Shown: positions 7,683 to 52,153 of the stretch, one piece after another
Layout: each line of letters opens with the position of its first letter
How positions within the stretch are numbered: the first letter of the stretch is position 1
Source: Desulfurococcales archaeon
GTDB taxonomy: Archaea; Thermoproteota; Thermoprotei_A; Sulfolobales; NBVN01
Length of the DNA: 64,000 nucleotides
Direction: 5' to 3'
NCBI GenBank assembly: GCA_023255955.1
Contig: JAGDWD010000005.1
Coordinates: forward strand, 14,384-78,383
The notes under the pieces: model-generated
Told to the model about the DNA's origin: nothing
What the model saw: only the letters and a program-made list of their open reading frames with translations
The model's database searches: none
Program-made: the position numbers and the translations under genes

Positions 7683-7688
7683 ATCACA

Positions 7689-10128: not shown

Positions 10129-10986
10129 TTAGAGCATTACCTCGATGAGCACTCCATCTATTATGTCTTTATATCTATTACGTACAGTGACTTCGGAAAC
10201 CTCCGTCTCTTTAGAGATAGCTGACTGAGTTTTCCTTATGTTTGAGAGTATGGATGCTACGTAGAGTGATGCTACCGCCACTCCCTGAGGTCCCTTACTT
10301 AAGAGTGTGCCGGAGGCCTTACCAGCTTCAACTATCCTTATAGCTAGGGTAGCGACATGGCTGGGTAGTCCGGCTTTATGGGCGTATGATACTACGAGAG
10401 TTCTCGGGTCGTACGACCTGGACTTAGCTATTCCCAGATCTCTCCTGATCTTCATTAGTGCATCCCACACATCTCTAAGTGTTGTTCCGCAACTCTCTAC
10501 AACGTCTCTGGTGTTTATCGGTATGTTGAGGTTCTCAGCAGCACATATGATGGCTGCAGCAACGTAGGCACTAATCTTCTTACGCCCTATGACCCCGCTC
10601 TTGATGAGCTTTCTGAGTATCAGGCCCACCTCCTCCTTAAGCCTAGCAGCAGTAGGAGTTGGGAGCTTGTTTATTGCTTCATTAGATAGTTTGAGGGCTC
10701 GGGACAGCTTCTTCTCGTCATTTGAGACCACCCTACTCCTACTGTTCAACTCGGAGAGTTTCCTCCCTATCCACGAGGCTCCATCTATCTCAGTGTGGAA
10801 ACCCATGTCATGTACCTTGAGGGTATTAGGTGTCTCAGCACGCTCCCTATTGGATGTGGTGGAGAACGACCGCCACTCCTTACCGGTATCGACCAACCTC
10901 TCCTCAAGAACCTCACCAGTCTCAGCGCAGATAAATTCCCCTCTAAACTCGTCGTAGATTACTTCACGGCAGCTCACACGCATCAC
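10129..10986 (-). CDS. tfb: transcription initiation factor IIB (TFB) with a degenerate N-terminal Zn ribbon
   Basis: VIYDEFRGEFICAETGEVLEERLVDTGKEWRSF is followed by two cyclin-fold repeats. Only 2 of the 4 usual ribbon Cys are present. The start overlaps gar1 by 4 nt. Confidence 0.85.
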   Translation of the reverse strand: MMRVSCREVIYDEFRGEFICAETGEVLEERLVDTGKEWRSFSTTSNRERAETPNTLKVHDMGFHTEIDGASWIGRKLSELNSRSRVVSNDEKKLSRALKLSNEAINKLPTPTAARLKEEVGLILRKLIKSGVIGRKKISAYVAAAIICAAENLNIPINTRDVVESCGTTLRDVWDALMKIRRDLGIAKSRSYDPRTLVVSYAHKAGLPSHVATLAIRIVEAGKASGTLLSKGPQGVAVASLYVASILSNIRKTQSAISKETEVSEVTVRNRYKDIIDGVLIEVML

Positions 10987-24943: not shown

Positions 24944-25972
24944 CTATGTCAGGGTAGACCTCAGAACTCTCGATATGTTCCCGTAGGCTACCTTCTCGAG
25001 TTCCCCATCGGTGAAACCCTTCTCCGCTAATCTCCCCAACAACACCTGAACCTTCTCTATGGACTCAAACCCCTCCGGTACCGGTAGACCGAGGAGACCC
25101 AGGAAGTCCGTACCTATAGCTAGGAGGTCTGCACCGAAGTTTTCACGTACGTAGGTGAAGTGTTCGACCAGGTCGTCCAGGGATGGTCTAGGCTTACTAG
25201 ATATTAGTGGGCCTATAGCAGAAAGCCCTATAATCCCTCCCTTCCTCCTTAAAGCATCAAGAACTTCGTCATCTACGTTCCTAGCCCTATCCACTAGCCT
25301 CCTCACATTCGCGTGGCTCACGATGACGGGCTTCGAGCTTACCTCGATAGCTTCAAGTGCTGTCTTCTTACTGGCGTGAGCTACGTCGATAACTATCCCC
25401 AGCTTATTAGCTACCCTAATCAGTTCCTCACCCTCCGATGTGAGGCCCGTATCCTTCCTTGATGAGCAGCCAGACCCGTACTTATTGGTGTAGTTCCATG
25501 TGAGGCCTAAGCTCCTGAGACCAAGCTTTTTAAGTATGGTGAGGTCGTAGGGCTCGTCAATAGCTTCAGCACCCTCTAGGTGTAGCAGGAAGCAGAGTCC
25601 GTCACCCTTAACACATGACTCGAAGTCTTCGTAGGCCTCAACTATTTTTATCCCATAGAACTCGGAGAGTTTGTAGTATATGGATATGTGCTCCCATAAA
25701 ATAGCCTGGGGAACCCTGAAACCGACAGACGGGATCCACCTACCGTACAACTCTTCCAGGGTCTTAGACTCCACAGGTCTGAACGTCTCCACACCGGGGA
25801 ATATCGATGCGAATACTACGCGCACACCACCCTTCCGGTACTTAGGTATGTCCGCCTCCCTACCTGGGATATCCCTGGAGAAGTCCCCGAGAGCAGCTCC
25901 ACCACCATGATAGAAGAAGTAGCCTGATACATCCTGGTGGAGGTCCACAACGGGAAATTTCCTTTGTGACAC
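24944..25972 (-). CDS. membrane (renal-type) dipeptidase, peptidase family M19
   Basis: VVDLHQD metal-binding N-terminal motif, HLEGAEAI, DVAHAS, SHANVRRL, GTDF. Confidence 0.85.
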   Translation of the reverse strand: MSQRKFPVVDLHQDVSGYFFYHGGGAALGDFSRDIPGREADIPKYRKGGVRVVFASIFPGVETFRPVESKTLEELYGRWIPSVGFRVPQAILWEHISIYYKLSEFYGIKIVEAYEDFESCVKGDGLCFLLHLEGAEAIDEPYDLTILKKLGLRSLGLTWNYTNKYGSGCSSRKDTGLTSEGEELIRVANKLGIVIDVAHASKKTALEAIEVSSKPVIVSHANVRRLVDRARNVDDEVLDALRRKGGIIGLSAIGPLISSKPRPSLDDLVEHFTYVRENFGADLLAIGTDFLGLLGLPVPEGFESIEKVQVLLGRLAEKGFTDGELEKVAYGNISRVLRSTLT

Positions 25973-29450: not shown

Positions 29451-32180
29451 TTACGTATCGCTACCGAAGTAGCTTGGGTAATAGGACATCCGCATCCCAA
29501 TTAAGGTATTCATGAGGTTACCGCCTATTAAGCCGTCTAGATTGAAGAGCACAGCTCCTCTCAGCTTCAGCTCCTCTACTACGTACCCCAGCTGTAACGC
29601 TAGCTGTACGTTTAGGAGTCTCCAGGCACCTATACCGACCAACAACCTGTCAGGTTTATTGAGGGCGCTTAGTTGCGAACTTATGTAACTCTTAAATACT
29701 GTGAAGTCCGTGGTGTAGGACATAGTGGCTACGTAGTCTACTATACCTTCATTCACCCAGCTCGCCCAGTCCTGCAGGACCGTTGAAACAGCTTGAGGGC
29801 TTGGAAATACAGCAGCCGACACTTCGATGCCTGGTCTCAGGCTCCTTGCTGTATCCGCCACCCTCCTCACCACATTCGTTATGCCGTCAACCAAGAACCT
29901 CTGGTATAGTGCTCTATCTTGTTCAGGGTCCTTACCATATACCTCCCTAAACTTCTCTGAAGAGCATTTTCCATAGACATCGCTCTGCGGAGCTCTAATC
30001 CTATCTAGCTGTATCCCCCTCACCTCGGGATACTTGGTTAAGATCTCCCGGACCATATTCAGCAACCTCTCAACGTACTCATCGCAGTAAGGATCTACCC
30101 AGCCGAGCATCTTCCCACTGCTATCGTATAGAGCTAGATCCGGTCTTTCCTTAATGAAGAAGCCCGGCTCTGTCTCACCTTCTGATAGTGCGTTGATGTA
30201 GACGTAGACCTCTATCCCATACTGCTTAGCGATCCCTATTACGTCCTTGAGGACGTCCCAGGAGTACTTCGGGCTCATCGGTGCGTAGGAGCTGTCGTAG
30301 TACACGTATCCCCAGGGATCCTTAGCTAAGAAGAAGACAGCATCTACCCCAGCAGTTGCTAGCTTTGCTAGCACTTCATCTACTTGCTTAAGCCAGGTCC
30401 CTCTGTCCGAGCTCCACTTATCTGAATATACTCCCCACCACACAGCAATGAAGGCCTTCTCATAGGACCTGCCGAGAAAGGCTTCGTAGTACTTACTAGC
30501 CAGCTCCATGTATGTAGACCAGTCCCAGTTCGGTCCCGGATCGGTGTGGTGTGATGCTCCCCCACCGAGGCTCGGGTTCTTCGGGTCCGGAACCTGGTCA
30601 TGGCCTATCACACCACCACCGGAGGCGTCTGCCGGTGCTATCCCGGAGGGCCTAGTCAGGGGGATCCCGTACTTATAGGCGAGGTAGGCGAGGAGCCTGG
30701 CTGAAGCTCTGTACTGGACCTCCGTAAACATCTTAGCCTTAACGAAGCCTTCATGCTCTATCCCCACAGACAGGGAGTTGTATAGCTTATTCCCCGCGTG
30801 CCAGGCAACATCCTTCTCTCTAACCATCTGATATACTGTACCGCCCAGAGACACTATGTAGTGAGCAGACACCCCAGCTCTAGGATCGAGGAACCAGTTT
30901 ATTGCTGACTGGGCTGAACCCTCAGTAACGTGGATGACGGCCCAGCTAATACTGGATCTATTTGCTTTTGCGTAGTTACCTGAGTAGGCCTCAATCCACT
31001 GAGCTAGTGGGTAGTCAGGTGGACCGCTCCATTCGAGTCTCAAGTTCTTGAGTAGGCTCCAAAGTGTTGGGTCCCCCAGGTCCAGTCTCCACACGGCTAC
31101 TCCTGCTAGGGAGTACTCCAACGCTAGTTTTGACCTGTAGTAGGCCATCTCACCATCCACGTAGTACGCTACACCCTCAGGGATCTCGGCCCTGAGCTCC
31201 TTAGTGGTCAGATCCAGAGTAAAGCTAGCTCCTTGCGATCTTAGGGATTGGTATTCTGGGAGTAGTAGCCACTTAAGGAGCTTGCCTGATCTATCCCATA
31301 GCTTACCATAGTTCGGGACACCGAGAACTAGCTTCTCTCTCGGTATGTACATACTAGCATACTTCACACACTCCTCCACCCACCACAGCGGGGCTACTGG
31401 CTTAGGTCCAGCTACCTCATAGAAATCGTAAGCCATAATCATTACGTAGTCAACACTCGTCTTACCCAGCAGCTCGTAGTCGTAGGTCTGTAGATAAGAG
31501 CTCGGATACTCAGCTCTCTTAGCTGGTACAGCTACAGTAAGTATGAGGCCGGCCTCATGGAGTTTCTTAGCTACTTCATCGACAAACGTGGCGAACTCGG
31601 CCTTATATGCTGGGAGGCTCACCTCGAAATCTATGTTAAACCCTACGTACCCGTACCTTCTAGCTAGATCTACTAACCGGCTGGCGAAGTTTCCTACAGC
31701 GTTCGGGTCGGTAATCAGTCTCTTAACCCTTGTGGCATCGGATGAAACCACCATGGGAGCTACAAACACTCCACGAGCTCTCGCTAGCTTAAGGAACTCA
31801 CTGTCCTCAGCGCCTCTACTAGTAAAAGAACCTACTGTAAGGTCGTCAGCTAGGTAGTACCAGTCAGGTGAAGCAAAATCTATTACTGCCCCACCAAACT
31901 GACTCAGTATCTGAGCTACGTCGCTGGATTTTGTGCTGTAGATCCATGCCCAGATAAACGGCTTCCTCTTGTAGGGAATGGTGGGTAGGGCTATCAGAGG
32001 AGCTGTAGTAGCTGTAGCCAAAGGTGAAGTTACTGTTAAAGTACTTCTACCTACTTCGGTCGTGAGTGTGGGGGTTTCATGCTCTGGGGACGGGAGGATA
32101 GTGAAGAGGTAGTATAGAGTTGAGGCTATTACGATGACTGAGACAATTAAAATAGCTAGGACTTTTCTCACGGTGCGCAC
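29451..32180 (-). CDS. secreted/anchored three-domain cell-wall hydrolase-like protein: GH18-like (YaaH/YdhD type) + N-acetylmuramoyl-L-alanine amidase (Amidase_2) + GHL10/DUF187
   Basis: N-terminal TM helix. GH18-like region is aa ~73-372 (nt 31065-31964) with GFNIDFE and MAYDF. Amidase_2 is aa ~405-556 (nt 30513-30968) with VIHVTEG, SAHYIV, AWHAG, SVGIEHEG and GHDQV...HHTDPGPNWDW. GHL10 is aa ~575-860 (nt 29601-30458) with GIQLDRIR and QDWASW. Confidence 0.85.
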   Translation of the reverse strand: MRTVRKVLAILIVSVIVIASTLYYLFTILPSPEHETPTLTTEVGRSTLTVTSPLATATTAPLIALPTIPYKRKPFIWAWIYSTKSSDVAQILSQFGGAVIDFASPDWYYLADDLTVGSFTSRGAEDSEFLKLARARGVFVAPMVVSSDATRVKRLITDPNAVGNFASRLVDLARRYGYVGFNIDFEVSLPAYKAEFATFVDEVAKKLHEAGLILTVAVPAKRAEYPSSYLQTYDYELLGKTSVDYVMIMAYDFYEVAGPKPVAPLWWVEECVKYASMYIPREKLVLGVPNYGKLWDRSGKLLKWLLLPEYQSLRSQGASFTLDLTTKELRAEIPEGVAYYVDGEMAYYRSKLALEYSLAGVAVWRLDLGDPTLWSLLKNLRLEWSGPPDYPLAQWIEAYSGNYAKANRSSISWAVIHVTEGSAQSAINWFLDPRAGVSAHYIVSLGGTVYQMVREKDVAWHAGNKLYNSLSVGIEHEGFVKAKMFTEVQYRASARLLAYLAYKYGIPLTRPSGIAPADASGGGVIGHDQVPDPKNPSLGGGASHHTDPGPNWDWSTYMELASKYYEAFLGRSYEKAFIAVWWGVYSDKWSSDRGTWLKQVDEVLAKLATAGVDAVFFLAKDPWGYVYYDSSYAPMSPKYSWDVLKDVIGIAKQYGIEVYVYINALSEGETEPGFFIKERPDLALYDSSGKMLGWVDPYCDEYVERLLNMVREILTKYPEVRGIQLDRIRAPQSDVYGKCSSEKFREVYGKDPEQDRALYQRFLVDGITNVVRRVADTARSLRPGIEVSAAVFPSPQAVSTVLQDWASWVNEGIVDYVATMSYTTDFTVFKSYISSQLSALNKPDRLLVGIGAWRLLNVQLALQLGYVVEELKLRGAVLFNLDGLIGGNLMNTLIGMRMSYYPSYFGSDT

Positions 32181-32235: not shown

Positions 32236-32427
32236 TCAGTGCTTTAATGCTCTGCGGAGTCCAACCGCAGATACTATAACCATGGACGCAGATACTATCA
32301 GTCCTATGAGGGCCGGTAAGAATGCTTCGTCTGACGGTGGTAGTAAGGCTAGGGCTATGGCAGATAAAACACATAGCACAGATGACAGTGCGAGGATATC
32401 GATTAGTATTATTGGGTGTACCTTCAA
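32236..32427 (-). CDS. small two-TM membrane protein, last gene of the ABC operon
   Basis: 63 aa with two hydrophobic helices. The ATG lies 4 nt after the stop of the upstream ATPase gene. Competing overlapping ORFs look less protein-like. Confidence 0.4.
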   Translation of the reverse strand: MKVHPIILIDILALSSVLCVLSAIALALLPPSDEAFLPALIGLIVSASMVIVSAVGLRRALKH

Positions 32428-32431
32428 CTCC

Positions 32432-33415
32432 TCACCCCGGGCTTGCAGGGAGCCAGCTAGGCCTCCACTTAGGTAGCTTACCTGCTTTTACACATAGTGA
32501 GTAGTGGTCTGGCCCCACCCTCAGATAGCTCCCAGGGGTAAGTGATGAGCATTCTGAGTCGAGTAGTGGGCACATCTCCGAGAACGGGCAGGGGCTACTC
32601 ACGTTCGGGTTTCTTGCTGACTCCATCACTCCGTCAAGTCCCCTAACTCTCCTTTCTGAGAGGACGAGGGGGACAGGAATGTTAGATATTAACGCCCGGG
32701 TATAGGGATGTTCAGGTCTGTAGATCACTTCGCTAGCTGGGCCGAACTCCACTACTAGGCCTTTTAGCATCACATACATGGGGTTATCCCCAGCTGCGTA
32801 GACAGCGGCACCTAGGTCGTGTGATATGAACATAATGGATGTTCCTCTGTTTTCAACTATCTTCTTTAGGAGGTTTATCAGTGAGACACGTATGGATGGA
32901 TCCACCATGCTGACAACCTCATCAGCAACTATAAGATGTGGATCTGTAATGAGTGCTCTAGCTAGAGACAGTCTCTGCCTCATCCCACCGGATAGGTGAT
33001 GCGGGTACTTATCTATAAAGTACTCAGCTGGTACTAAGCCCACCTCTTCGAGGAGCTCCCTAATGTACTTAAACCTGTCAGCATTACTTAGATGCTTCTT
33101 GTACTTCCTGACTACGGGCTCGAGTATGTTCTTAACGTTCTTGGAGGGGTTAAGTGCTGTGTACGGGTCTTGGTGAACATAGACGAATTTATGTCTATTA
33201 CTTAGATAGAAATCCTTCTGAACTATTCTACCATCCTTTACGACTACAGTATTCTCCCAGGAAAGCTCCCCGGTGGTGGGCATGACGAGCCCTACCAGGA
33301 TCTTACCTAGCGTAGTCTTTCCAGAACCGCTCTCACCTACCAAGCTTATCATGCTCTTATTGGGGATCTCAACTGAGATCGACTGTAAGGCTTTTATGAG
33401 TCTCTTCCTAAACAC
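32432..33415 (-). CDS. Opp/Dpp-type ABC ATP-binding protein (OppF-like)
   Basis: GESGSGKTT, LSGGMRQR, LIVADE. The conserved N-terminal strand (ARNVSKVYSKG) lies upstream of the first canonical start; see findings. Confidence 0.85.
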   Translation of the reverse strand: MFRKRLIKALQSISVEIPNKSMISLVGESGSGKTTLGKILVGLVMPTTGELSWENTVVVKDGRIVQKDFYLSNRHKFVYVHQDPYTALNPSKNVKNILEPVVRKYKKHLSNADRFKYIRELLEEVGLVPAEYFIDKYPHHLSGGMRQRLSLARALITDPHLIVADEVVSMVDPSIRVSLINLLKKIVENRGTSIMFISHDLGAAVYAAGDNPMYVMLKGLVVEFGPASEVIYRPEHPYTRALISNIPVPLVLSERRVRGLDGVMESARNPNVSSPCPFSEMCPLLDSECSSLTPGSYLRVGPDHYSLCVKAGKLPKWRPSWLPASPG

Positions 33416-33462
33416 ACCCTTACTGTAAACCTTACTAACATTTCTAGCATGAGCTACCGAAC

Positions 33463-34488
33463 TCAGAGCTTCTCACCTCCACTGTAGAGCCAGCACTTCA
33501 CGAACCTCTCCTTCTTAGGTTCGTAGAGAGGAGGTTCCGAGGTTCTACACTTCTCAACTGCGTAGGGACACCTCGGATGGAACTTACAGCCAGGTGGTGG
33601 GTTAAGGAGGCTTGGTGGTTCACCTGGAACTGGCTTCGGGATCCTCTTTACGTAAATATCAGCAACAGAGGGTATGGCCGATATAAGCATTGATGTGTAT
33701 GGATGTAGTGGCTCCTTAAATATCTCGTAGGTGTTCCCGACCTCAACTACTGTTCCAGCGTAGAGGACTGCTAATCTATCTGCTAGCTCCGCTACTACAG
33801 GGATATCATGGGTTATCAGTATCATGGTGTTCCTGTACTTCATCGAGACATCGTTAAGTATGTTCAGTAGGACCCTCTGAGAGAAGACGTCTAGGGCCGA
33901 CGTGGGCTCGTCCAGTATGACTAGCTCCGGTTTGAGTATCATGGTCAGCGCTATGACCACTCTCTGCTTCATCCCACCACTAAGCTCGAACGGATACTTC
34001 TTCAGTACTGTGTCAGGGTCCAGCCTCACTAGGGAGAGCATTGAGTGTATCTCGCTCATCGAGCTTTCCGGCTTCCAGAGACCGTGATTTCTCAGTGTCT
34101 CTATGAAGTGCTGCTCAACTGTCAGAACCGGGTTCAGGGAGTTCTGAGCGCCTTGCGGGATGTAGCCTATTACCTTACCACGTAACCTCCTCATAGTTCT
34201 CTCATCAGCTTTTATGAGATCTACTTCCTCACCACTCGAAAGTCTTAGTAGGGCCTCCCCACCACGTATCCTAGCGTTCCTTGGAAGTATCTTGAGGAAT
34301 GTCTCGACGAGCGACGTCTTCCCAGATCCACTCTCACCAACTATTGCCGTTATTTTTCCCTCGTCTACAAAGAGGGTGACACCACTTACTGCTTTAATAG
34401 ATCCTTCCCTCACGAGATACTCCATTCGCAAGTTTCTGAGCTCCAGCTTCGGCTTGAAGTTCTTACCTGTCCTCACCTCATCACTCAT
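33463..34488 (-). CDS. Opp/Dpp-type ABC ATP-binding protein (OppD-like)
   Basis: GESGSGKTS, LSGGMKQRV, LVILDEPTSALD, C-terminal PPGCKFHPRCPYAVEKC. Confidence 0.9.
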   Translation of the reverse strand: MSDEVRTGKNFKPKLELRNLRMEYLVREGSIKAVSGVTLFVDEGKITAIVGESGSGKTSLVETFLKILPRNARIRGGEALLRLSSGEEVDLIKADERTMRRLRGKVIGYIPQGAQNSLNPVLTVEQHFIETLRNHGLWKPESSMSEIHSMLSLVRLDPDTVLKKYPFELSGGMKQRVVIALTMILKPELVILDEPTSALDVFSQRVLLNILNDVSMKYRNTMILITHDIPVVAELADRLAVLYAGTVVEVGNTYEIFKEPLHPYTSMLISAIPSVADIYVKRIPKPVPGEPPSLLNPPPGCKFHPRCPYAVEKCRTSEPPLYEPKKERFVKCWLYSGGEKL

Positions 34489-35368
34489 AAGTCCTCAACC
34501 TCGGGTTAAACACCTCCTCAAGGGCTTGCGCGAAGAACACTACCCCTAACTTGATTACTACGAGTATGGAGATCATTAGGAACACTATGACTGACCCGTT
34601 AGGGATTAATAAACCCTTATACGTAAATATCATCTGATTGAGTAGGTACCCCCAGTTTGTTGGATTAAGAGGTGCGACGCCAAGTAGTACTATGCCTATT
34701 AGGGAAGACATGTTGGCGACGAAGAGAGTAGCGAAGTTGTAAGTTACGAATGGTAGGAGGTGTGGACCTATCTCTCTAAAGAGTATGTAGAGTTTACTTA
34801 AACCTAAGTTAATGCAGGCCTCCACGAAGTCCCTGGTTTTGAGGGAAGATACCTCAGCAGCGAGAGCCCGGGCTAGTCCCGGCCAGCTGAAGAGTGCTAG
34901 GAGTACAGCTATAGTTAGGGGGGACTTCGGTAGTACATATGCTAAGATAAATATCACCGGGAAAGACGGTATTGTTAGCCAGACGTCAGTCACAGCTGTT
35001 AGCGCTCTTCTAGCTACCCCTCCTACATATCCTGCAAAAAGTCCTACTGACATCCCGCCTATGATGCCGATTATAGTCGCTATGAACGGTATCAGGAAAA
35101 CCTCTCTAGAGCCGTGAACAACCATGGAGAGAAGATCCCTCCCCATGTAGTCACATCCTAAGGGGTGCTCCAGGGAAGGTAGGCACCACCTCATCGAAGG
35201 CTTTAGCTTGGTATCTAACGGTATTAGTGACGGGCCTACCGTAGCCATTAGAATCATAATAGCTATCATTATCAAACCAAAGAGACCTCGACCACTCCTC
35301 AGCACTGGCTTAACGAAATCTAGGTAAAAGAGGTAGAGCCCGGACTTAGTCTGAGCTCCACTACTCAT
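34481..35368 (-). CDS. Opp/Dpp-type ABC permease (OppC/DppC-like)
   Basis: 295 aa with 6 TM segments. N-terminal HPLGCDYMGRDLLS motif and an EAA-like loop. Confidence 0.85.
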   Translation of the reverse strand: MSSGAQTKSGLYLFYLDFVKPVLRSGRGLFGLIMIAIMILMATVGPSLIPLDTKLKPSMRWCLPSLEHPLGCDYMGRDLLSMVVHGSREVFLIPFIATIIGIIGGMSVGLFAGYVGGVARRALTAVTDVWLTIPSFPVIFILAYVLPKSPLTIAVLLALFSWPGLARALAAEVSSLKTRDFVEACINLGLSKLYILFREIGPHLLPFVTYNFATLFVANMSSLIGIVLLGVAPLNPTNWGYLLNQMIFTYKGLLIPNGSVIVFLMISILVVIKLGVVFFAQALEEVFNPRLRTYE

Positions 35369-36393
35369 GCTACCGCCACCTCCCGCCGTACTCTAGGGTC
35401 TATGAATGGGGTCACCATGTCCACTATTATCACCCCGATAATGGTTGCTACAGTCATCATGAAGAATATCCCCTGTAGGAGTCCGTAGTCCCTGATGCTC
35501 AACGCTATCGACAAGTAGTAACCCATACCTGGGTAGGCAAATATGGTCTCTATGAGTGTCGACCCACCTATCATGCCCCCTATTCGGAGGGCAAGGAGAG
35601 GTATCAGAGGCAGTATAGAGTTCCTACCAACGTATGTAGTTATTATCCTCCTCCTGCTTATCCCCCTAGCCTCAGCGTACTTAAGGAAGTCTTCCTCGAG
35701 GATCTTAGCGACATTTGATCTTATTAGGAGTGCCCACCCACTGAACGTTGTGACTACGTAGGTCAGTATCGGTAGTGCAGCATGGTATAGTACGTCCGCT
35801 ATGAACCTGAGGTTAAAGCCCGGCTCTACATCAGGGGAGTACGCTCCCCTTGCTGGTAGTAGCCCGAGCCTCGCAGAGAGGATTATGTAGAGGAATAGAG
35901 CTATGGCGTAGCCAGGTATTGCTGAGATCACAGTGAATGTTGACGACATGATGAAGTCTGATTTACTCCCCCGCTTAAACCCTGCTACCATCCCGGCTAG
36001 TACTCCGATGACGAATGAGAGAGATACCCCTATAGACAATGTAAATACTGTCCACCCTAAGGCCCTAGCAACTACGTATGTGACAGGCCTCTTGAAGTAT
36101 GTGGAGTAGCCTAGGTTCCCTCGAAGTAGGCCCAGAACGTACTCGAAGTACTGGACATAGATGGGCTTCTCGATCTCTATTCCGTAGTAGATAGAGTAGA
36201 CGATCTTCCTAGCCTCCTCGAACGGTATTCTCAGCTCCTCAGCTAGAGACGCGGCTAGTGTGTAGAGGACATCTCCGGGCATGGACCTTATTGCTATGAA
36301 GGTCACTGTTGAGGCTATCATTATCGTAATTAAAGCGTAAACAAGTCTCTTCCCAAGTATCTTACCGAAGGGAAAAAGAGCTTTTAAATCCAT
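35365..36393 (-). CDS. Opp/Dpp-type ABC permease (OppB/DppB-like)
   Basis: 342 aa. MPGDVLYTLA (DppB N-terminal motif), EDFLKYAEARGIS EAA loop, C-terminal DPRVR. Confidence 0.85.
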   Translation of the reverse strand: MDLKALFPFGKILGKRLVYALITIMIASTVTFIAIRSMPGDVLYTLAASLAEELRIPFEEARKIVYSIYYGIEIEKPIYVQYFEYVLGLLRGNLGYSTYFKRPVTYVVARALGWTVFTLSIGVSLSFVIGVLAGMVAGFKRGSKSDFIMSSTFTVISAIPGYAIALFLYIILSARLGLLPARGAYSPDVEPGFNLRFIADVLYHAALPILTYVVTTFSGWALLIRSNVAKILEEDFLKYAEARGISRRRIITTYVGRNSILPLIPLLALRIGGMIGGSTLIETIFAYPGMGYYLSIALSIRDYGLLQGIFFMMTVATIIGVIIVDMVTPFIDPRVRREVAVA

Positions 36394-36414: not shown

Positions 36415-38433
36415 TTATCGTAGGTAATATATGCTGAGGAGTAGGAGGGCTCTATAGTAGCCAGCATCCATCAGCCTAACGCTCCAGACTGGGTCGTCTA
36501 GTGATGGCCAGCCCTTAATGTCCTTAGTGTTCATGAAGACCCAAACACCGTACTCATATAGGTGGAACACCGGGACATACTCATTAACTATCCAGGCAAA
36601 TGCCTTAACAGCACACTTCTCTATGTCGGTACCTGGGTTGTTGTAGAGTATGCTGAAGAGCCTCGATATGTTCTCGTCCTTAGTGCAGTCCTTCCACGGG
36701 TGCTGAATATTCCACCAGTTCGGGAACGCTATAGCTCCTCCAGCTCCCCACCCTAGCATCAGTATATGCGACCATGTCCAGTACGGGTGGCCGGTGGCGT
36801 ACATGAGGCTGGATATCCATATGGTTATATCGTAGTTCCTCAGAGTCGTGTACGATGTGGCGTAGGTCTGAACGAGGGTGGTCCAGACAGCACTAGGCAC
36901 TACGTTTATCTGTGTTGATATGCCGAAGTTGTTGAGGGCTGATGCCACAGCCTCGGCAACTATCGCGTAGTCGGAGGTTATGGTTATCGTAACCGATATA
37001 GGAGTCCCATTCGGTAGCAACCACTTCCCGGTGCGGGGATCCTTCTTAAACCCTCCAGCTAACATCTCCTGCTCTGCCTTCTTAGGATCATAACTGTATT
37101 TAGTGAAGTACTTGAGGTCGTCCTGGGAGAGCCACTGCCAGAGGAACTCCTCCGGTAGACCTATGTTCAGTATGGGCTCCTTTGCCTGGAACGGGAGGGC
37201 TGTTAATATCTCGTCTCTATTTATAAGGTACGCTACTGCTCTGCGGAAGTGGGTATCGTTCATCGGGTAGCGCTGGAAGTTGAATAATATGCCAACCATT
37301 CTGAAGTGTGTTAACGGGTATATCAATAGGTTCGGGTTTAGAGCACCTATAGCATCCACCAGGTCTGGGGTAAGCGAGGAGAGGGTAGTCCAGGTAACAG
37401 CTCCCCTACCCAGCTCCTCTATGATCACAGCAGTCTCGGGTGAGCGCGACATGATCCACTTAGATACAGCTATGTTAGGTGCGTTCCAGAAATACGGGTT
37501 CTTCTCCCAGATTATGTTTGACTCAGTTATCTTAGCTGGGTAGTAGGGACCGTTAGCTAGCGATGTCGGGACCTTCTTAGCAACCTCAGTTAGGTTCCCT
37601 TTAAACCACTTGTTGAGTAGGGCTAGTCTGTCTGTGATCTCTTTAGGTATTGGTTGTGCAGTAGCTGAGAGGTAGTAACGATGCTTCAGTAGCTGGTACT
37701 GCTCTGTACATATAGGCCATAGAGGATCTACCTTATAGTATCTACTGGATGCCCAAACACCATACCATGACCACATCCACGAGGTGAGAGTCTCAAATCT
37801 TATGTTAGTTCCGTTGAAGTACCTCCTTATAGTTGTTGCGTCAACCACCTCATAGTAACCTGGGAAAGAGTTGTAGTAGCAGCCGTAGTATACTATGCTG
37901 ATGAATACGTCCTCAGCTGTTACTGGGTCCCCATTACTCCAACCAGTCTTCTTGAGCTTTACCTCAGCTATGGTAACATTCTTTACGGGATCTACCCTGA
38001 AGGTCCAGCTATCAGCTAGTAACTGAAGGAGCTTAGGGTACTCCCCGGGGAGTCCGGGCAGGGGAGCTCTCTCAGCAGGCACTAAGAAAACTAGTGGCAT
38101 GTGGGTGTAGTAGTGTAACATACCGATAGTACCCACTAACGGGTTAGTGATGTAGTTCTCTGGGGGTGGCCAGCTACCGTATAAATATATAACCTTCTCT
38201 GTCGGGGCTACGGTAATCGGTGTAGTTGTTGGGGTGGTCGGAGTAGTGGTCGGAGGGGTAGTTATGGGAGCGGTAGGTGTTGTTGTTGGGGTGGGCTTAG
38301 GTGTTGTTGTAGGTGTTGGGGTTGTTGCTGGTGCGGACGGACCCATGAGGACCATACCTGCTATGGTACCAACTACAGCTACTATAATGATTAAAGCTAC
38401 TATAATGTATAAGGTCTGTTTTTGAAGAGGCAC
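36415..38433 (-). CDS. ABC substrate-binding protein, family 5 (Opp/Dpp type), N-terminally anchored through a Thr/Pro-rich linker
   Basis: 672 aa. An N-terminal TM helix is followed by PATTPTPTTTPKPTPTTTPTAPITTPPTTTPTTPTTTP and an SBP_bac_5-like body. GTG start. Confidence 0.8.
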   Translation of the reverse strand: MPLQKQTLYIIVALIIIVAVVGTIAGMVLMGPSAPATTPTPTTTPKPTPTTTPTAPITTPPTTTPTTPTTTPITVAPTEKVIYLYGSWPPPENYITNPLVGTIGMLHYYTHMPLVFLVPAERAPLPGLPGEYPKLLQLLADSWTFRVDPVKNVTIAEVKLKKTGWSNGDPVTAEDVFISIVYYGCYYNSFPGYYEVVDATTIRRYFNGTNIRFETLTSWMWSWYGVWASSRYYKVDPLWPICTEQYQLLKHRYYLSATAQPIPKEITDRLALLNKWFKGNLTEVAKKVPTSLANGPYYPAKITESNIIWEKNPYFWNAPNIAVSKWIMSRSPETAVIIEELGRGAVTWTTLSSLTPDLVDAIGALNPNLLIYPLTHFRMVGILFNFQRYPMNDTHFRRAVAYLINRDEILTALPFQAKEPILNIGLPEEFLWQWLSQDDLKYFTKYSYDPKKAEQEMLAGGFKKDPRTGKWLLPNGTPISVTITITSDYAIVAEAVASALNNFGISTQINVVPSAVWTTLVQTYATSYTTLRNYDITIWISSLMYATGHPYWTWSHILMLGWGAGGAIAFPNWWNIQHPWKDCTKDENISRLFSILYNNPGTDIEKCAVKAFAWIVNEYVPVFHLYEYGVWVFMNTKDIKGWPSLDDPVWSVRLMDAGYYRALLLLSIYYLR

Positions 38434-40082: not shown

Positions 40083-41018
40083 CTAGCGGTAGAGTACCGC
40101 ATAGGCTGCTCCGTAGAGACATGATAAGCTACCTAGAGCTGTCGCAGTAATCTTACAGGCTCTTACTGCTACGGGCTGGGCTACTCTAGAGAAAACCTCC
40201 TCTATTAAATCCTTAAATCTAATCCACAACTCTACTCCAACACTACCCCCAAACACAACAATCTCAGGGTTAAGCGCGCTGACTAAGTTCGCTACTAGGA
40301 TACCCACTACTAGCGCAACTTTCCTGAGTGTCTTCACAGCAAAGGGAGCACCGAGATCATGTGCTCGGAAGAGGCACCTAGCGTCAAGCTCTTCACATAG
40401 ATCTCTAAGGGTCTTACCTGGAAGTACCTCCTCAGAAGCATGCTTTGATACCAGCTCTGACAAGCTTAGGCCACTCACTACCTCCTCTAGGTAACCCCTC
40501 CGCGACTTACGTTTACGCGGTCTCTGCGAAAGGAGCCACCAGCCAACCGCGCCAGCAACATTTGTAGCACCTCTTAGTATCTTCCCATCAATCATTATGC
40601 CGGCACCCACTCCAGTACCAATGATTAGTGTGATAACGTTTCTCATCCCTCTAGCTGAGCCTAGCCACACCTCCCCCAAAACGCTGGCTTCTCTGTCATC
40701 TACTATCTTGAGTTTCGCAGGTTGTTTTAGGGAGTTTTTAATAGTTGAGCGCAGGTTAACGCCATCCCAGCCTCTTATGTTGGGGGCCCAGACGTAGGAG
40801 CCCCTCCAAACCGCGCCAGGTACGCAGATCCCAACTCCATCAAGCTCCCTGTGAGAGTACCTAGTAACTACCTCCCTAACTTGGTTCACCACGTAGTTCC
40901 CACCTCTTTTATCGGTCATCATATGACCTTGCTCTAAAACGTTACCTAGCCCATCAACTAAGGCGTAAGCTATCTTAGTACCACCCACATCTATTGATAG
41001 AACTAACCTACTGCTCAA
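40083..41018 (-). CDS. ROK-family sugar kinase (glucokinase / N-acetylhexosamine kinase type, no HTH domain)
   Basis: LSIDVGGTKIAYALVD, GICVPG, GTGVGAGI. It starts directly with the ATPase fold, so it is a kinase rather than a repressor. Confidence 0.85.
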   Translation of the reverse strand: MSSRLVLSIDVGGTKIAYALVDGLGNVLEQGHMMTDKRGGNYVVNQVREVVTRYSHRELDGVGICVPGAVWRGSYVWAPNIRGWDGVNLRSTIKNSLKQPAKLKIVDDREASVLGEVWLGSARGMRNVITLIIGTGVGAGIMIDGKILRGATNVAGAVGWWLLSQRPRKRKSRRGYLEEVVSGLSLSELVSKHASEEVLPGKTLRDLCEELDARCLFRAHDLGAPFAVKTLRKVALVVGILVANLVSALNPEIVVFGGSVGVELWIRFKDLIEEVFSRVAQPVAVRACKITATALGSLSCLYGAAYAVLYR

Positions 41019-41030: not shown

Positions 41031-41825
41031 TCACTTCGCTAAGTGCTGTGAGTACAGCTCCCTATATTTCCGCAGTACCTCCCCCATAACCTGCTCAGCG
41101 TCGGTGTCGAAGCCTCTAACTGGGAGCACGAGTACTCTATGTCCGGAGCTGATAAGGTAGGTGAGAGTCTTAAGGATTAGAGCATTAGCTACAAAAATAG
41201 ACGCTATCGTAGAGAGAGGGCCCACTCTTAGTACCCGCTCTTCGTGGGTAAAGCGTATTGATACATCTCCTTCGGGTACCCCAGTATCTATAACTACGTC
41301 AGCTACTTCATGGAGTTTAACCCCCGCTGGATGACGTGGACTGGCCTTAGCGGCATGTTTAAGTGAGGTCACACCAATGACGCGGGCTTTCCTATGCTTG
41401 AACTGTAAAGCTATTTCCACAGTTATAGGTGTCGTCCCCGAGTGCGAGAATAGTACAGCACAGTCCTCCCCATGAATCTCGTAATTCTCCACTATTCTCC
41501 GCCCATACTCTGGGGAATTCTCGATGAAGTCGAATTGGGGGTAACCCATGTCCCCAACAATCCTTAGGAACGACACTAAGGGTAAATCAACTATAGGTAG
41601 AAAACCTAGGAACGAGCCATACCTCGGAAACATCTCCATGACGGGTATTGCTGAGTGTCCAGAACCGAATAGGAAACAGACATGCCCTCCAGCAATAGTG
41701 TCTGCTATTATTTTAGCAGCTTCCTCTATTTTCGCGGCTTGAGTAGTCATTATGTAGTGAAAGACCTCAGCGACCTTCTTGTACCATTCACCAAGTAGGT
41801 CTAGCTGGCGATCTGGATTACTCAT
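41031..41825 (-). CDS. SIS-domain (SIS_2/UPF0309-like) sugar-phosphate isomerase-type protein
   Basis: 264 aa with FLFGSGHSAIP and VLFSHSGTTPITVE. It overlaps the upstream GH gene by 4 nt. Confidence 0.7.
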   Translation of the reverse strand: MSNPDRQLDLLGEWYKKVAEVFHYIMTTQAAKIEEAAKIIADTIAGGHVCFLFGSGHSAIPVMEMFPRYGSFLGFLPIVDLPLVSFLRIVGDMGYPQFDFIENSPEYGRRIVENYEIHGEDCAVLFSHSGTTPITVEIALQFKHRKARVIGVTSLKHAAKASPRHPAGVKLHEVADVVIDTGVPEGDVSIRFTHEERVLRVGPLSTIASIFVANALILKTLTYLISSGHRVLVLPVRGFDTDAEQVMGEVLRKYRELYSQHLAK

Positions 41826-43972
41826 GTCTCCGAGTACCCCACAACAACCTTCCTGGGATGAACAAGTAAGGTGAACGTCCCAGACTCAGCTAGGTAGTCT
41901 TTCCCTGTTATTAGATCCTTAAACTTCGTGATACCTAAGGAGCTGGAAATTCTTAGCCTAGCTCGAACCTCGGACTGAGCATGGTTTATTATTACAACTA
42001 ACTTTTCTCTCCCTGATGCTAGTAAACGCACCTCGAGAGATCCAGGCGGATCCACAGTAGCAGGGGGATTGACGTCAGCTACCTTAGCTACACCCAGCAC
42101 AAGGTTCTCCACGCCAGGGTCCCGTGTGTTCTCATAGCTAAGTCCTAACGACGTGCCAGCCCACACAGCAAGTCCTGCCCCGAAGTTTTTTAACGATACT
42201 GTAGGGTGATTTCCGTTCGCGGTAGCTACGACCTTAGCTGAACCATCTACTACGTCTAAGGTTTCAAGGTATTGCCATGCTCTGATAGAGTCCCCTACTC
42301 GGAGTCCTGGAATATATTCATTAACAATCTTCATTACTGCTCCCTCAGTTGTTAAGGTTCTGCAACATGCTTCTCGAATGCCGAAGAGATTCCTTAGAGA
42401 ATGTGCCGGTACCTCAGAATCTACCCAGCCGTCCTCCTTGAACCAGCCAAATCTAGCATCTACTAGAAGAACCCCACCTCTCGATACGAACGACTCCATG
42501 CTTCTCGCCATTCTTTCCGAAACCGAGATGGAGAATGGAGCTATCAATACCTTGTAGTTATAGGATCCCTCCTCAAGTTGCCTAGACGATATTATGTCTA
42601 CCGGCATGTTATACTTAAAGAATATTCTGTAGATCCCGAGAGCTGCTGACGAGGGAATCCTTGCTGTGTCCTCTTGGAGAATCCATAGGAGTCTATACAC
42701 GTACTTGTTGTACAGTATAGCACATTCAGCTCCCAGAGGTCTAGCCCTAACGAATAGCTCTTCATGTTCCTCAAATAGTTTCGCGGTCTTCGATAGCACT
42801 CTAAATCTATCAGTTGGTGACCCGTCCTGGTTGAGGATCCCGTACCCGGAGGACTCATAACCCCACATCATTGGATAGGAGTGATATACGCAAACACCCT
42901 TAGCACCGTGTGCGAAGCTCTGCCAGATCCATAGGGCTACATCATCTGCTGTGACGGGTTCAGCTAGCTTCAGGCCACCAACTCCTTGACCTCCCTGTAG
43001 CTCACCAAGCCAGAAGTCTTTCTGGTGTGAGTATGCTGAAGATCTTACAGCATCTAAGATAAACCCGTCGACTACGGGGTCTGGAACTCTATGAGCGTGT
43101 TTAGGGTATAGGGACGTACCCCAAACATCAACTACCTCAGCCATTTCCCAGTCATCTGGGTGCCCGTAGAGAGGGTTCAGAAAGAGTGAGGTAGTGGCGG
43201 CATGGCTAGCTACGATGTGGTGGGGATCAACACTTTTAACGGTATCAACTCTCCACTTCAAGTCCTCCTTCAGCTTCTGTACATTGAACTCTACCCAATC
43301 TATGTTCTCTCGGGCGTAGTGCAGTACCACAAACCTCGGTGGCTCCACCTCATCGAAGCTACCGTAGCTTCTGTGCCACGCTCTGTTTAATTCCTCTATA
43401 TCGCCATACACCTTCCTAAGCCATTCCCTAAACCTCCTAATGCTGTGATCGCAGTAACAGTAGAGAGACCTACGTTGCCCAAGCTGGAAAACCCACTGCA
43501 CTGTCTGGGGCTCGCTCCAGAGATCCCACGCGTAGAAGTTCTCGTAGCTCTTCAGGAACCTAGCCAAAGCTTTGAGAAACCTCTCAGCACGGTCTCTAAC
43601 CGCCTTACTGTCTAAGCACACCCCAGGACTTCCCTGAGGATAGAGCTTGGTACCGGTCTCCGAAGTAAACAGAGCGTCCGGGAACATCCTTGGGAGCCAG
43701 TCAGGTGCGAATTCTAGGTAGACCTGAACTATGACGCGGAGCCCGAACATGTTTGAGAGCTCCATAAGCTCCTTGAGGGCTTCGAACCTGTAGGTGCTGG
43801 GAGATGGCTCGCAATCCCTCCAGTTTACCCACAACCTTAAGTATCCTACTCCGGCATCTCTGATGCGCTTCAAATCTCCCACATATTTTTCTCTAGTAAG
43901 TGGGGGAGTAACGCTCCCCACTCCATACCATAAAGCAAGCGGGTATGTCCTATAACTGGGAAGTCCGGTCAT
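41822..43972 (-). CDS. GH42/GH35-like glycoside hydrolase (beta-galactosidase / exo-beta-D-glucosaminidase GlmA-like)
   Basis: 716 aa. TIM-barrel N-terminus (DLKRIRDAGVGYLRLWVNWRDCEP, YAWDLWSEPQ acid/base context, WLGELQGG nucleophile context) is followed by a trimerisation-like domain. Confidence 0.7.
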   Translation of the reverse strand: MTGLPSYRTYPLALWYGVGSVTPPLTREKYVGDLKRIRDAGVGYLRLWVNWRDCEPSPSTYRFEALKELMELSNMFGLRVIVQVYLEFAPDWLPRMFPDALFTSETGTKLYPQGSPGVCLDSKAVRDRAERFLKALARFLKSYENFYAWDLWSEPQTVQWVFQLGQRRSLYCYCDHSIRRFREWLRKVYGDIEELNRAWHRSYGSFDEVEPPRFVVLHYARENIDWVEFNVQKLKEDLKWRVDTVKSVDPHHIVASHAATTSLFLNPLYGHPDDWEMAEVVDVWGTSLYPKHAHRVPDPVVDGFILDAVRSSAYSHQKDFWLGELQGGQGVGGLKLAEPVTADDVALWIWQSFAHGAKGVCVYHSYPMMWGYESSGYGILNQDGSPTDRFRVLSKTAKLFEEHEELFVRARPLGAECAILYNKYVYRLLWILQEDTARIPSSAALGIYRIFFKYNMPVDIISSRQLEEGSYNYKVLIAPFSISVSERMARSMESFVSRGGVLLVDARFGWFKEDGWVDSEVPAHSLRNLFGIREACCRTLTTEGAVMKIVNEYIPGLRVGDSIRAWQYLETLDVVDGSAKVVATANGNHPTVSLKNFGAGLAVWAGTSLGLSYENTRDPGVENLVLGVAKVADVNPPATVDPPGSLEVRLLASGREKLVVIINHAQSEVRARLRISSSLGITKFKDLITGKDYLAESGTFTLLVHPRKVVVGYSET

Positions 43973-44092: not shown

Positions 44093-45256
44093 GTGATTAT
44101 GGGTAAGGTCGCTCTAGGTGTTGATAGATTCCTAGCAGAGGGTACCTACAGGAAGTTCATCGGCCTCAAACTTGTCGTACTGACCAACCAGAGCGCTGTA
44201 ACCTCAGGTCTCACCTACACGATCACCGAGCTCAGAGATAGGGGGATCAACGTCGTATGCGTCCTAGCTCCTGAGCACGGGTTCTGGGCTGAGTACTACG
44301 AAGGCGAGAAAGTTCCGAGCACGTACGAAGAATCCCTCGGACTCCACGTTCGCAGTATATACGGCAGGGAGAGGGGTGAAAGCTATAGAGTTCTTGACGA
44401 GGCGGATGGGGTCATAGTCGACATACAGGACGTTGGGGTGAGGTTCTACACCTACGTATCAGCACTTTTTGAGACCATGGACTACGCAGCTAAGTACGGT
44501 GTCCCGAACGTTGTGGTTCTTGATAGGCCTAACCCTCTGGGTGCTTACGTCATGGAGGGACCCCTCCTCCAGGACGAATACAGGTCCTACGTCGGGTACT
44601 ACAGAATCCCCCTGCGGTTCGGTCTCACCCTAGGTGAGTTAGCTCGGTACTACAACCTAGTGGAAAATCTAGGACTGGAAGTTACGGTAGTTCCGCTAGC
44701 TGGCTACTCCAGGTTCATGGATATTCTCGACCTAGACGTCCCCTGGGTACCACCCTCCCCAGCTATCCCCGATAGGGAGACTGTGATTACCTACCCCTCC
44801 ATAGCGTTACTTGAAGGGACTAACATAAGCGAAGGAAGAGGTACGTACACACCGTTCAAGGTCTTCGGTGCTCCGTTTATCGACCCCTTCAAGCTGGCCT
44901 CCAAGCTGAACTCAGCTAAGCTAGCCGGCGTTATCTTCAGGCCAACCTACTTCAGGTCTAGGTACTCTAAGTACTTAGGCCAGAAATGCGGTGGCGTGTT
45001 CGTTCACGTAGTTGACAGGAAGGCTGTTAGAGTGGTTAGGCTAGGTTTGCAAATACTTAGAGCAATCTACGAGCTCTACCCGGAAAACCTAGTATTCACC
45101 ACGAGTAACGGTAAGTTCTACACAGACCTACTACTCGGGACGGCTAAAGGCCGTGAGGCCGTAATCTCAGGGGAGATAGAGGAGTTCCTGCAGTACGCCT
45201 CCGACAGTGTAAAGGATTTCGAGGAGCAGGCTAGGACGGCCATGATCTACACCTAG
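44093..45256 (+). CDS. DUF1343-family protein (homologue of exo-beta-N-acetylmuramidase NamZ/YbbC)
   Basis: LGVDRFL, LVVLTNQSAV, APEHGFW, VVDIQDVGVRFYTYVS, VVVLDRPNPLG, WVPPSPAIP, LEGTNISEGRGTYTPFKVFGAP. The match to the DUF1343 pattern runs nearly end to end. Confidence 0.85.
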   Translation: MIMGKVALGVDRFLAEGTYRKFIGLKLVVLTNQSAVTSGLTYTITELRDRGINVVCVLAPEHGFWAEYYEGEKVPSTYEESLGLHVRSIYGRERGESYRVLDEADGVIVDIQDVGVRFYTYVSALFETMDYAAKYGVPNVVVLDRPNPLGAYVMEGPLLQDEYRSYVGYYRIPLRFGLTLGELARYYNLVENLGLEVTVVPLAGYSRFMDILDLDVPWVPPSPAIPDRETVITYPSIALLEGTNISEGRGTYTPFKVFGAPFIDPFKLASKLNSAKLAGVIFRPTYFRSRYSKYLGQKCGGVFVHVVDRKAVRVVRLGLQILRAIYELYPENLVFTTSNGKFYTDLLLGTAKGREAVISGEIEEFLQYASDSVKDFEEQARTAMIYT

Positions 45257-51168: not shown

Positions 51169-51172
51169 GAAA

Positions 51173-52150: not shown

Positions 52151-52153
52151 CAC

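Follow-up and report, generated by a model that had tools for sequence, protein, structure and literature searches.

A putative locus for scavenging bacterial peptidoglycan, built around a surface-anchored three-module hydrolase, in a hyperthermophilic archaeon

Background

A 909-aa enzyme with three hydrolase-family modules (GH18, Amidase_2 and GHL10) and the gene cluster around it were analysed in a stretch of 64,000 nucleotides from a Desulfurococcales archaeon (contig JAGDWD010000005.1; hereafter the window, to which all coordinates refer unless a locus of a relative is named). The closest functional analogue of this locus is the murQ-murR-murP-amiE-nagZ-namZ operon of B. subtilis. There NamZ, an exo-beta-N-acetylmuramidase specific for N-acetylmuramic acid (MurNAc), degrades murein (bacterial peptidoglycan) stepwise together with an amidase and an N-acetylglucosaminidase (PMC8054146). 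The operon and the archaeal locus have in common a MurNAc-L-Ala amidase, an N-acetylglucosaminidase, NamZ, a dedicated importer and cytoplasmic amino-sugar enzymes, and also the stepwise degradation of peptide-free glycan, which is predicted on the archaeal side. The archaeal locus differs in having a host without murein of its own and in the fusion of three extracellular activities in one membrane-tethered protein. It also has Amidase_2 in place of AmiE, GH18 in place of GH3 and an Opp-type ATP-binding cassette (ABC) transporter in place of the MurP phosphotransferase system.

The acquisition of murein hydrolases by archaea is established, both for modular peptidoglycan hydrolases (Strock et al. 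2025, PMC12352652) and for a GH25 lysozyme (Metcalf et al. 2014, PMC4241558). Like those proteins, the window protein carries exported bacterial-type murein hydrolase domains acquired by murein-less archaea. The described proteins combine one catalytic with one wall-binding domain, come mostly from Halobacteriota, Nanoarchaeota and Thermoplasmatota, are read as weapons and are often plasmid-borne, whereas the window protein has three modules of catalytic families and no binding domain, is membrane-tethered, belongs to the Thermoproteota and lies within an uptake and catabolism cluster. The definition of archaeal 'weapons' used by Strock et al. requires a wall-binding domain, and the window protein, having none by Pfam, therefore falls outside that screen. 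The text of that study makes no mention of Amidase_2, GH18 or Thermoproteota, and its authors leave open whether the bacteria are competitors or 'themselves the resource' (PMC12352652). In the literature searched, no description of a murein catabolic locus in Desulfurococcales or Sulfolobales was found, nor one of the three-module architecture with its catabolic linkage.

Results and Discussion

The analysis indicated, with a probability of about 0.6, a murein scavenging locus of a hyperthermophilic archaeon, which on the evidence of its sequences would strip peptides, cut the glycan, import the products and catabolise them. The enzyme, held at the cell surface by its N-terminal anchor and Thr/Pro stalk, would act on wall debris or soluble muropeptides of neighbouring bacteria. 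Its Zn-dependent Amidase_2 module would free the stem peptides from MurNAc and leave denuded glycan, the SleL-type GH18 module would cleave the bonds of N-acetylglucosamine (GlcNAc) in GlcNAc-beta-1,4-MurNAc, and the GHL10 module would cleave MurNAc-beta-1,4-GlcNAc bonds as in Cwp19 and DigH, or at least bind the denuded strand. Short saccharides, and possibly peptides, would then be taken up through the Opp-family binding protein, which is anchored in the same way, and the ABC transporter. Inside the cell NamZ would free MurNAc (one relative encodes a GH84 N-acetylglucosaminidase), a ROK kinase would phosphorylate the amino sugars and a NagS/MurQ-like SIS enzyme would pass them to central metabolism. 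In this picture the identities of the domains, their folds, the active-site residues of two modules (GH18 and amidase), the predicted topology and the linkage of the genes are observed, as presented below; the choice of substrates, the sequence of reactions and the use as food are inferred.

An earlier, sequence-only reading of this gene had proposed that the protein strips stem peptides and cuts the glycan of bacterial walls, for a purpose either nutritional or antibacterial. The sequence comparisons, the structural models and the gene context all support this proposal, with the cutting of glycan strands secure only for the GH18 module and weaker for the GHL10 module, which has Arg727 at a proposed catalytic position. 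Of the two purposes the nutritional one is favoured because of the conserved importer and the cytoplasmic catabolic genes, and the antibacterial one less so.

If the more far-reaching pathway considered below is real, the locus would be the first 'peptidoglycan utilisation locus' of an archaeon, and archaea in hot springs would have in the bacterial wall a defined source of food. The locus presents a concrete, testable case for the resource answer, with predicted extracellular murein dismantling genetically coupled to import and to cytoplasmic MurNAc/GlcNAc catabolism in a host that makes no murein, and it makes the question of weapon or food directly testable. Where published screens require a wall-binding domain, they overlook multi-catalytic architectures of this kind. 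For enzymology the locus is a source of thermostable amidase, glucosaminidase and GHL10 modules, and it draws attention to a GHL10 subfamily, as yet uncharacterised, that has another residue in place of the presumed catalytic Asp.

Three-module enzyme and its host

The open reading frame of the enzyme (29451-32180, minus strand, GTG start) was scanned with Pfam and each of the three modules scored above its curated cut-off. The values were 79.2 bits against 29.6 for Glyco_hydro_18 (residues 153-367), 105.6 bits against 26 for Amidase_2 (PF01510, residues 409-550, covering profile positions 3-131 of 131) and 64 bits against 27.9 for GHL10 (PF02638, residues 598-833); with the E values of Table 1 these matches are far beyond chance. 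The three-module frame described in the sequence-only reading was thereby confirmed with exact coordinates, and the motifs it had listed were all located. These are GFNIDFE at residues 180-186 in the GH18 module; VIHVTEG (415-421), SAHYIV (438-443), AWHAG (459-463), GIEHEG (473-478), GHDQV (526-530) and HHTDPGPNWDW (544-554) for the amidase; and GIQLDRIR (722-729) and QDWASW (803-808) in the GHL10 module. The N-terminal transmembrane or signal helix of the same reading corresponds to the sole hydrophobic segment of the protein, at about residues 7-28, which is probably an uncleaved signal anchor. It is followed by a stretch with 11 Thr and 8 Pro in 46 residues.

The host had been described as an organism without peptidoglycan. 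This agrees with a TFIIB/TFB homologue gene in the window (10129-10986) and with syntenic orthologues of the enzyme in metagenome-assembled genomes (MAGs) titled Desulfurococcaceae archaeon (84% identity) and Sulfolobales archaeon (65%); to our knowledge, Thermoproteota have no murein. The GC content across the enzyme gene (0.517) is unremarkable beside that of the window (about 0.49), so the gene is not a recent insertion. An Rfam scan of the window gave no match.

Amidase_2 module

The active site of the amidase module was compared with that of AmpD. Zn is bound in this family by a triad of His, His and Asp (or Cys), which in AmpD are H34, H154 and D164, and the catalytic Glu of AmpD is E116. 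In the phmmer alignments E475 fell on AmpD E116 and D547 on AmpD D164, and H417 aligned to the strand His in the 'LHYT' motif of AmpDh2. H417, H461 and H527 were invariant in an alignment of 39 sequences, while E475, H545 and D547 were kept in all homologues of the same subtype (type A, see below). Judged by these alignments the Zn ligands H417, H527 and D547 and the catalytic E475 are intact. The sequence-only reading had counted Zn ligands of AmpD/PGRP-type amidases among the motifs, and on alignment none of them was found absent.

The AlphaFold2 (AF2) model of the module, built on the 39-sequence alignment, had a pLDDT of 96.2, and its top Foldseek match was AmpD (E 1e-10, TM score 0.66-0.70). 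The neighbours of the model in the PDB were exclusively murein amidases and PGRPs, namely AmpD, S. aureus AmiA, phage endolysins, AmpDh2, AmiD, PGRPs and T7 lysozyme. The structural comparison with AmpD and PGRPs, which had been suggested earlier, thus gave matches to AmpD, AmiA, endolysins and PGRPs, and the model assigns the AmpD/PGRP/T7-lysozyme fold to the module. With AmpD, AmpDh2 and AmiD (2y28, 4bj4, 3d2y) the archaeal module shares this fold, the His-His-Asp Zn triad and the catalytic Glu. It differs from AmpD in being extracellular (predicted), in having His545 at the position of AmpD Lys162, and in a loop between the second His and the Asp that is about 10 residues longer; His545 and the longer loop are common to the Actinomycetota and Chloroflexota homologues of the amidase.

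GH18 module

The SleL/YaaH-type GH18 proteins are N-acetylglucosaminidases acting on spore-cortex murein fragments, according to work cited in PMC10653849. The best PDB matches of the archaeal GH18 module were YdhD of B. subtilis (3cz8, 4.8e-22), SleL of B. cereus (4s3j, 4e-15) and YaaH of B. megaterium (4s3k, 5.6e-14), and two entries annotated 'GH18/probable chitinase' (5jh8 and 4q6t) were also among the best relatives. D184-F-E186 in the archaeal G-F-N-I-D-F-E motif aligned to T-I-D-F-E of YdhD and to I-N-[VL]-D-F-E of 5jh8 and 4q6t, by which the catalytic D184-x-E186 pair at the end of beta-4 is retained. The PDB alignments also bear out the earlier statement that the upstream Asp of the chitinase DxxDxDxE motif is replaced and D-x-E kept, as in YaaH and YdhD. 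SleL, YaaH and YdhD thus share with the archaeal module the N/T-[ILV]-D-F-E motif and the replaced Asp, and these enzymes act on peptide-poor murein. SleL and YaaH carry N-terminal LysM repeats that bind murein; the Pfam scan gave none in the archaeal enzyme, where the anchor and the Thr/Pro-rich stalk lie upstream of GH18. The archaeal module also has no sporulation role and is fused to two further catalytic modules.

The GH18 module also bears on another reading of the locus, in which it serves chitin or chito-oligosaccharides, or recycles the GlcNAc glycans of the organism itself (the chitobiose cores of N-glycans), with the amidase and GHL10 modules recruited to non-murein substrates. GH18 is primarily a family of chitinases and endo-beta-N-acetylglucosaminidases (ENGases), the Pfam scan gave a weak GH85 (ENGase) signal in the enzyme, the relatives 5jh8 and 4q6t are annotated as chitinases, and the substrate range of GHL10 is unsettled (PMC9967864). 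This reading leaves unaccounted for the Amidase_2 module, in which the Zn site is intact and for which every structural neighbour is a murein amidase or a PGRP. Together with the genomic evidence taken up below, this makes it very unlikely.

GHL10 module

Two characterised murein enzymes belong to the GHL10 family. Cwp19 of C. difficile is a GHL10 murein lytic transglycosylase (PMC6016235), for which Asp196 in D195-D196-Y197 was proposed from the structure as the key catalytic residue (PMC5765458). DigH (YddW) of E. coli breaks down denuded glycan, which is what remains of the strands once amidases have removed the peptides (PMC12288456). The AF2 model of the archaeal module had a pLDDT of 92.9 and its best Foldseek match was Cwp19 (5oq2/5oq3, E 8e-20, TM score 0.76), followed by PgaB-C, a hydrolase of poly-N-acetylglucosamine, a GH151 fucosidase and GH42 enzymes. 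The GHL10 profile matched the Cwp19 sequence with an E value of 1.8e-58, while DigH scored 453 bits to PF02638 and was 23% identical to the archaeal module.

The archaeal module has in common with Cwp19 and DigH the family PF02638, the TIM-barrel fold and the conserved beta-4 Asp (D726), beta-6 Tyr (Y822) and beta-7 Gly. A functional logic is shared with DigH as well, in that an amidase yields the denuded glycan which is the DigH substrate. The differences are an identity of only 15-23%, D-R-I instead of D-D-Y, and the lack of CWB2 or lipoprotein targeting. In the alignments to DigH and Cwp19 the second Asp of D-D-Y is Arg across the whole archaeal GHL10 clade (D726-R727-I728 in the window), so that R727 stands at the position of Cwp19 Asp196; D726 is invariant, and R729, Q803-D804-W805 and Y822 are further residues of the module. 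Among the 150 nearest GHL10 representatives in a library of 1.8 billion proteins the dominant motif was L-D-Y-I-R-Y. D726, Q803-D804-W805, Y822, D642, D696 and D815 were strongly conserved in the archaeal clade and in a large bacterial sister group. These alignments place the archaeal module in a large, uncharacterised GHL10 subfamily, 'LD[YR]IR'.

The replacement at position 727 raises the question whether the module is an enzyme at all. It could be a degenerate TIM barrel that serves as a glycan-binding or targeting module for the amidase and GH18. Such a role would suit a protein that otherwise has no wall-binding domain, and a basic residue in place of the proposed catalytic Asp could conceivably recognise the free lactyl carboxylate of denuded MurNAc. 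That D726 and several other pocket residues are strongly kept both in the archaeal clade and in its bacterial sister group, in which the second position is as a rule Tyr and not Asp, suggests instead an active subfamily with a different catalytic arrangement. In addition, mutagenesis backing for the catalytic residue of any GHL10 enzyme was not found in the literature searched. A role in binding only was considered fairly unlikely, and it would leave the overall murein picture unchanged.

Gene cluster, importer and intracellular enzymes

The genes on the strand of the enzyme follow each other from 43972 to 29451 in the order GH42-family glycosidase, SIS protein, ROK kinase, Eis-like GNAT, binding protein, two permeases, two ATPases, 63-aa protein and enzyme (Table 1). 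The gaps in the block from the transporter to the enzyme are at most 55 bp.

Table 1. Features of the enzyme and its gene cluster in the window, with the basis of each assignment
Feature	Position	Strand	Basis
AbrB/MazE-domain protein, 324 aa	28307..29281	+	Pfam; homologue beside enzyme in L001 (65%)
GHL10 TIM barrel, residues ~563-909	29454..30494	-	Pfam 1.6e-17; AF2; Foldseek Cwp19; profile alignment to Cwp19; DigH alignment
Amidase_2 module, residues ~386-562	30495..31025	-	Pfam 3.1e-30; AmpD alignment; 39-sequence conservation; AF2; Foldseek
GH18 module, YdhD/SleL/YaaH subtype, residues ~73-385	31026..31964	-	Pfam 5.6e-22; best PDB matches YdhD, SleL, YaaH
Thr/Pro-rich stalk, residues ~29-72	31965..32096	-	Composition; neighbouring solute-binding protein of the same anchor and stalk design
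N-terminal hydrophobic anchor, residues ~7-28	32097..32162	-	Only hydropathy peak of the protein; same feature in orthologues
Conserved 63-aa protein with two predicted transmembrane helices, between last ATPase gene and enzyme gene	32236..32427	-	Open reading frame
Two ABC ATPases with oligo_HPY C-terminal domains	32432..34488 (32432-33415, 33463-34488)	-	Pfam; syntenic in L001, L002, L008, L009
Two ABC permeases	34481..36393 (34481-35368, 35365-36393)	-	BPD_transp_1; syntenic
Surface-anchored Opp/Dpp-family solute-binding protein, SBP_bac_5	36415..38433	-	Pfam; N-terminal anchor and Thr/Pro stalk
Eis-like GNAT acetyltransferase, 427 aa	38604..39887	-	Pfam; syntenic in L001 (68%), L002 (59%)
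ROK-family sugar kinase, cytoplasmic (predicted)	40083..41018	-	Pfam ROK 2e-40; homologue in L002
SIS-domain protein, UPF0309/PRK02947 family, NagS homologue	41031..41825	-	NF002805 210 bits against cut-off 135; PDB SCO4393/NagS 9eol 3.7e-18
GH42-family glycosidase, 716 aa, cytoplasmic (predicted)	41822..43972	-	Pfam Glyco_hydro_42 2e-43; PDB GH42 beta-galactosidases
NamZ-family (GH171) exo-beta-N-acetylmuramidase homologue, full-length, divergent beside cluster	44093..45256	+	NamZ_N 209 bits, NamZ_C 146 bits

The best solved relatives of the binding protein were oligosaccharide (mannoside) binding proteins of Thermotoga (4pft/1vr5, E 2e-9), with dipeptide binders at 2e-5. By sequence it therefore appears to resemble the oligosaccharide-binding members of the Opp family more than the peptide-binding ones. 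The small protein between the transporter and the enzyme was 42-61% identical at the same position in four loci of relatives (L001, L002, L008 and L009) and may serve either the transporter or the enzyme as an accessory subunit.

The N-termini separate the predicted surface proteins from the others. The enzyme and the binding protein have an N-terminal anchor and Thr/Pro stalk, and the NamZ, GH42-like, ROK, SIS and GNAT proteins have no hydrophobic N-terminus. The NamZ homologue matched the B. fragilis structure 4k05 with an E value of 3e-59, the B. fragilis structures being those used to model NamZ, and it is apparently cytoplasmic, which is a further difference from the B. subtilis operon. 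The reading of the locus as one for chitin or the organism's own glycans gives no account of this homologue of a MurNAc-specific enzyme (PMC8054146). The ABC importer, ROK kinase, SIS enzyme and the GH84 enzyme of a relative would suffice for the catabolism of GlcNAc oligomers. Among sequences from elsewhere, NamZ homologues about 50% identical were seen in other Sulfolobales and Desulfurococcaceae MAGs (L015-L017), beside other Opp-type transporters, and the nearest bacterial homologues came from the thermophile lineages Hydrothermia (39%) and Thermodesulfovibrionales (35%).

The matches of the ROK kinase to glucokinase- and GlcNAc-kinase-like NCBIfam models were all below the equivalog cut-offs. 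NagS, the homologue of the SIS protein, is a GlcNAc-6-phosphate dehydratase (PMC12680351). The GH42-like gene was compared with archaeal GlmA-type glucosaminidases, and only GH42 beta-galactosidases were matched in the PDB.

Within the murein scavenging reading a more far-reaching proposal was considered. It is a dedicated pathway of hyperthermophilic Thermoproteota for growth on murein, made up of the tethered triple enzyme, a saccharide-type Opp importer, cytoplasmic NamZ/GH84, ROK and a NagS-like SIS enzyme replacing MurQ, held jointly with the claim that the GHL10 'LD-R-IR' clade is a new mechanistic subtype for denuded glycan. This joint proposal is tentative, and we would put it at somewhat less than even odds.

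Conservation in relatives

The conservation of the gene linkage was examined in the related loci. The enzyme gene lies directly after an Opp/Dpp-type ABC importer in all five loci (the window, L001, L002, L008 and L009), down to 50% identity. The GNAT gene is also kept in L001 and L002, the two contigs that reach that far, and the L002 cluster keeps the ROK kinase and adds GH84, which is absent from the cluster of the window. This additional gene, from a Sulfolobales MAG, encodes a GH84-type beta-N-acetylglucosaminidase (L002 844-2058, plus strand, PF07555 278 bits) between the ROK kinase and the GNAT. The three-module architecture was found in only about 8 clusters at 90% identity, and those with a taxonomic label are Desulfurococcaceae or Sulfolobales MAGs.

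The modules also occur in split form in the Thermoproteota, as Amidase_2+GHL10 proteins of 550-594 aa, GHL10-only proteins and GH18-only proteins, the last in Ignisphaera, Zestosphaera and Sulfolobales MAGs. All split-form proteins are predicted to be membrane-tethered, with a signal sequence and a C-terminal transmembrane helix. The Amidase_2+GHL10 proteins fall into two groups (P0096-P0103 and P0088/P0089/P0093), in which unrelated amidase domains are joined to the same archaeal GHL10 clade. The type A amidase, that of the window, is AmpD- and actinobacterial-like; its archaeal members make up a single clade that sits within bacterial sequences of Chloroflexota/Actinomycetota type, at about 50% identity. 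The type B amidase is PGRP/T7-lysozyme-like with the motifs 'TIHHTAT' and 'GHRDY'. That a murein amidase was joined to this GHL10 clade twice, independently, is good evidence of functional coupling, in which both activities would work on one substrate.

These two fusions have no explanation if the locus serves chitin or the cell's own glycans, although GH18-only and GHL10-only paralogues are widespread in Thermoproteota as that reading would allow. A fusion of GH18 with a DD-peptidase in L008 has no place in it either. This second fusion lies directly after the enzyme gene (L008 7738-10563, P0010) and has a transmembrane anchor, a Thr-rich stalk, GH18 (N-I-D-F-E) and Peptidase_S13. The last is a PBP4-type DD-peptidase domain (312 bits) with S515xxK, S775xN and K880TG intact in PBP4-like order and spacing. 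It makes a second case in which this GH18 is joined to an activity specific for murein. A protein of another kind, P0100 (334 aa, on a Logan contig of 5.8 kb), has an N-terminal part resembling the GH42-like protein of the window, joined in frame to the C-terminal half of the GHL10 module; it represents either a deletion of the whole cluster in some strain or an assembly chimera.

The nesting of the amidase clade within bacterial sequences is also what would be expected of a weapon. The enzyme would then mainly be an antibacterial or predatory tool that breaches the walls of bacteria in contact with the cell, with nutrient uptake secondary or unrelated. Archaea do encode horizontally acquired murein hydrolases that kill bacteria (PMC12352652; the GH25 lysozyme of PMC4241558), and the combination of amidase, glucosaminidase and muramidase-like modules resembles potent bacterial autolysins. 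The protein is, however, membrane-anchored and not freely secreted, and it lacks the cell-wall-targeting domain typical of weaponised hydrolases (criteria in PMC12352652). It is invariably co-encoded with the importer, and in the window also with cytoplasmic amino-sugar and MurNAc enzymes. Moreover, SleL-type GH18 enzymes and GHL10 enzymes of the DigH type act on glycan that is poor in peptides or denuded in preference to intact walls (PMC10653849, PMC12288456). A mainly antibacterial role is therefore unlikely; the two roles are not mutually exclusive and could coexist.

Several observations weigh against the murein scavenging reading. Arg727 in place of the proposed catalytic Asp of Cwp19/DigH leaves the substrate and even the catalytic competence of the archaeal GHL10 module uncertain on the alignments, and the nearest bacterial relatives mostly have Tyr at this position. 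Of the nearest GHL10 relatives 62 were scanned with Pfam, and all of these were GHL10, with no murein-binding or otherwise informative partner domain among them. Membership of the family alone does not fix the substrate, since the GHL10 member DogH is reported to be active on starch (PMC9967864). The Pfam scan gave no recognised murein-binding domain (LysM, SPOR or PG_binding) in the 909-aa protein. Unlike the B. subtilis operon the locus has no MurQ equivalog, the SIS gene having been rejected as MurQ with 22.7 bits against the NCBIfam model cut-off of 168, and the GNAT and GH42-like genes are unexplained by murein scavenging. The linkage of NamZ to the enzyme was seen only in the window, the contigs of the relatives being too short or different. 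Finally, no transporter linkage was found for the split Amidase_2+GHL10 and GH18-only genes in other Thermoproteota, whose neighbourhoods are different and rich in peptidases.

Other genes in the window

The AbrB/MazE-domain protein beside the enzyme gene is a candidate regulator of the locus. Proteins of this kind, of about 310-325 aa, recur in the related loci (L001 10561-11487, L003 13631-14560, L015 1553-2524, L016 1511-2488 and L017 287-1234), where they adjoin the enzyme (L001) or a GH18-only gene (L003) or sit near NamZ (L015-L017).

The window also encodes, downstream of NamZ, a peptidase of the S9 family that carries a beta-propeller at its N-terminus (45943-47907, plus strand). A homologue of 41% identity (L013 7955-9865) lies immediately upstream of a GH18-only gene in Zestosphaera tikiterensis, and the peptidase may be a link to the degradation of stem peptides. 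A cytoplasmic M19 dipeptidase (24944-25972, minus strand, 270 bits) lies 3.5 kb from the enzyme, in a synteny that is not conserved in the relatives. Bacterial M19 enzymes prefer L-Xaa-D-Xaa dipeptides, a preference that would suit murein peptides.

Further Opp-type ABC parts were present in the window, as two ATPases (6627-8678, minus strand) and as a binding protein with two permeases (49342-53008, plus strand), along with a Liv-type amino-acid ABC system (58869-63592) and a large S8 subtilase (13421-16030). These additional ABC systems and the subtilase suggest a lifestyle of peptide and oligomer scavenging.

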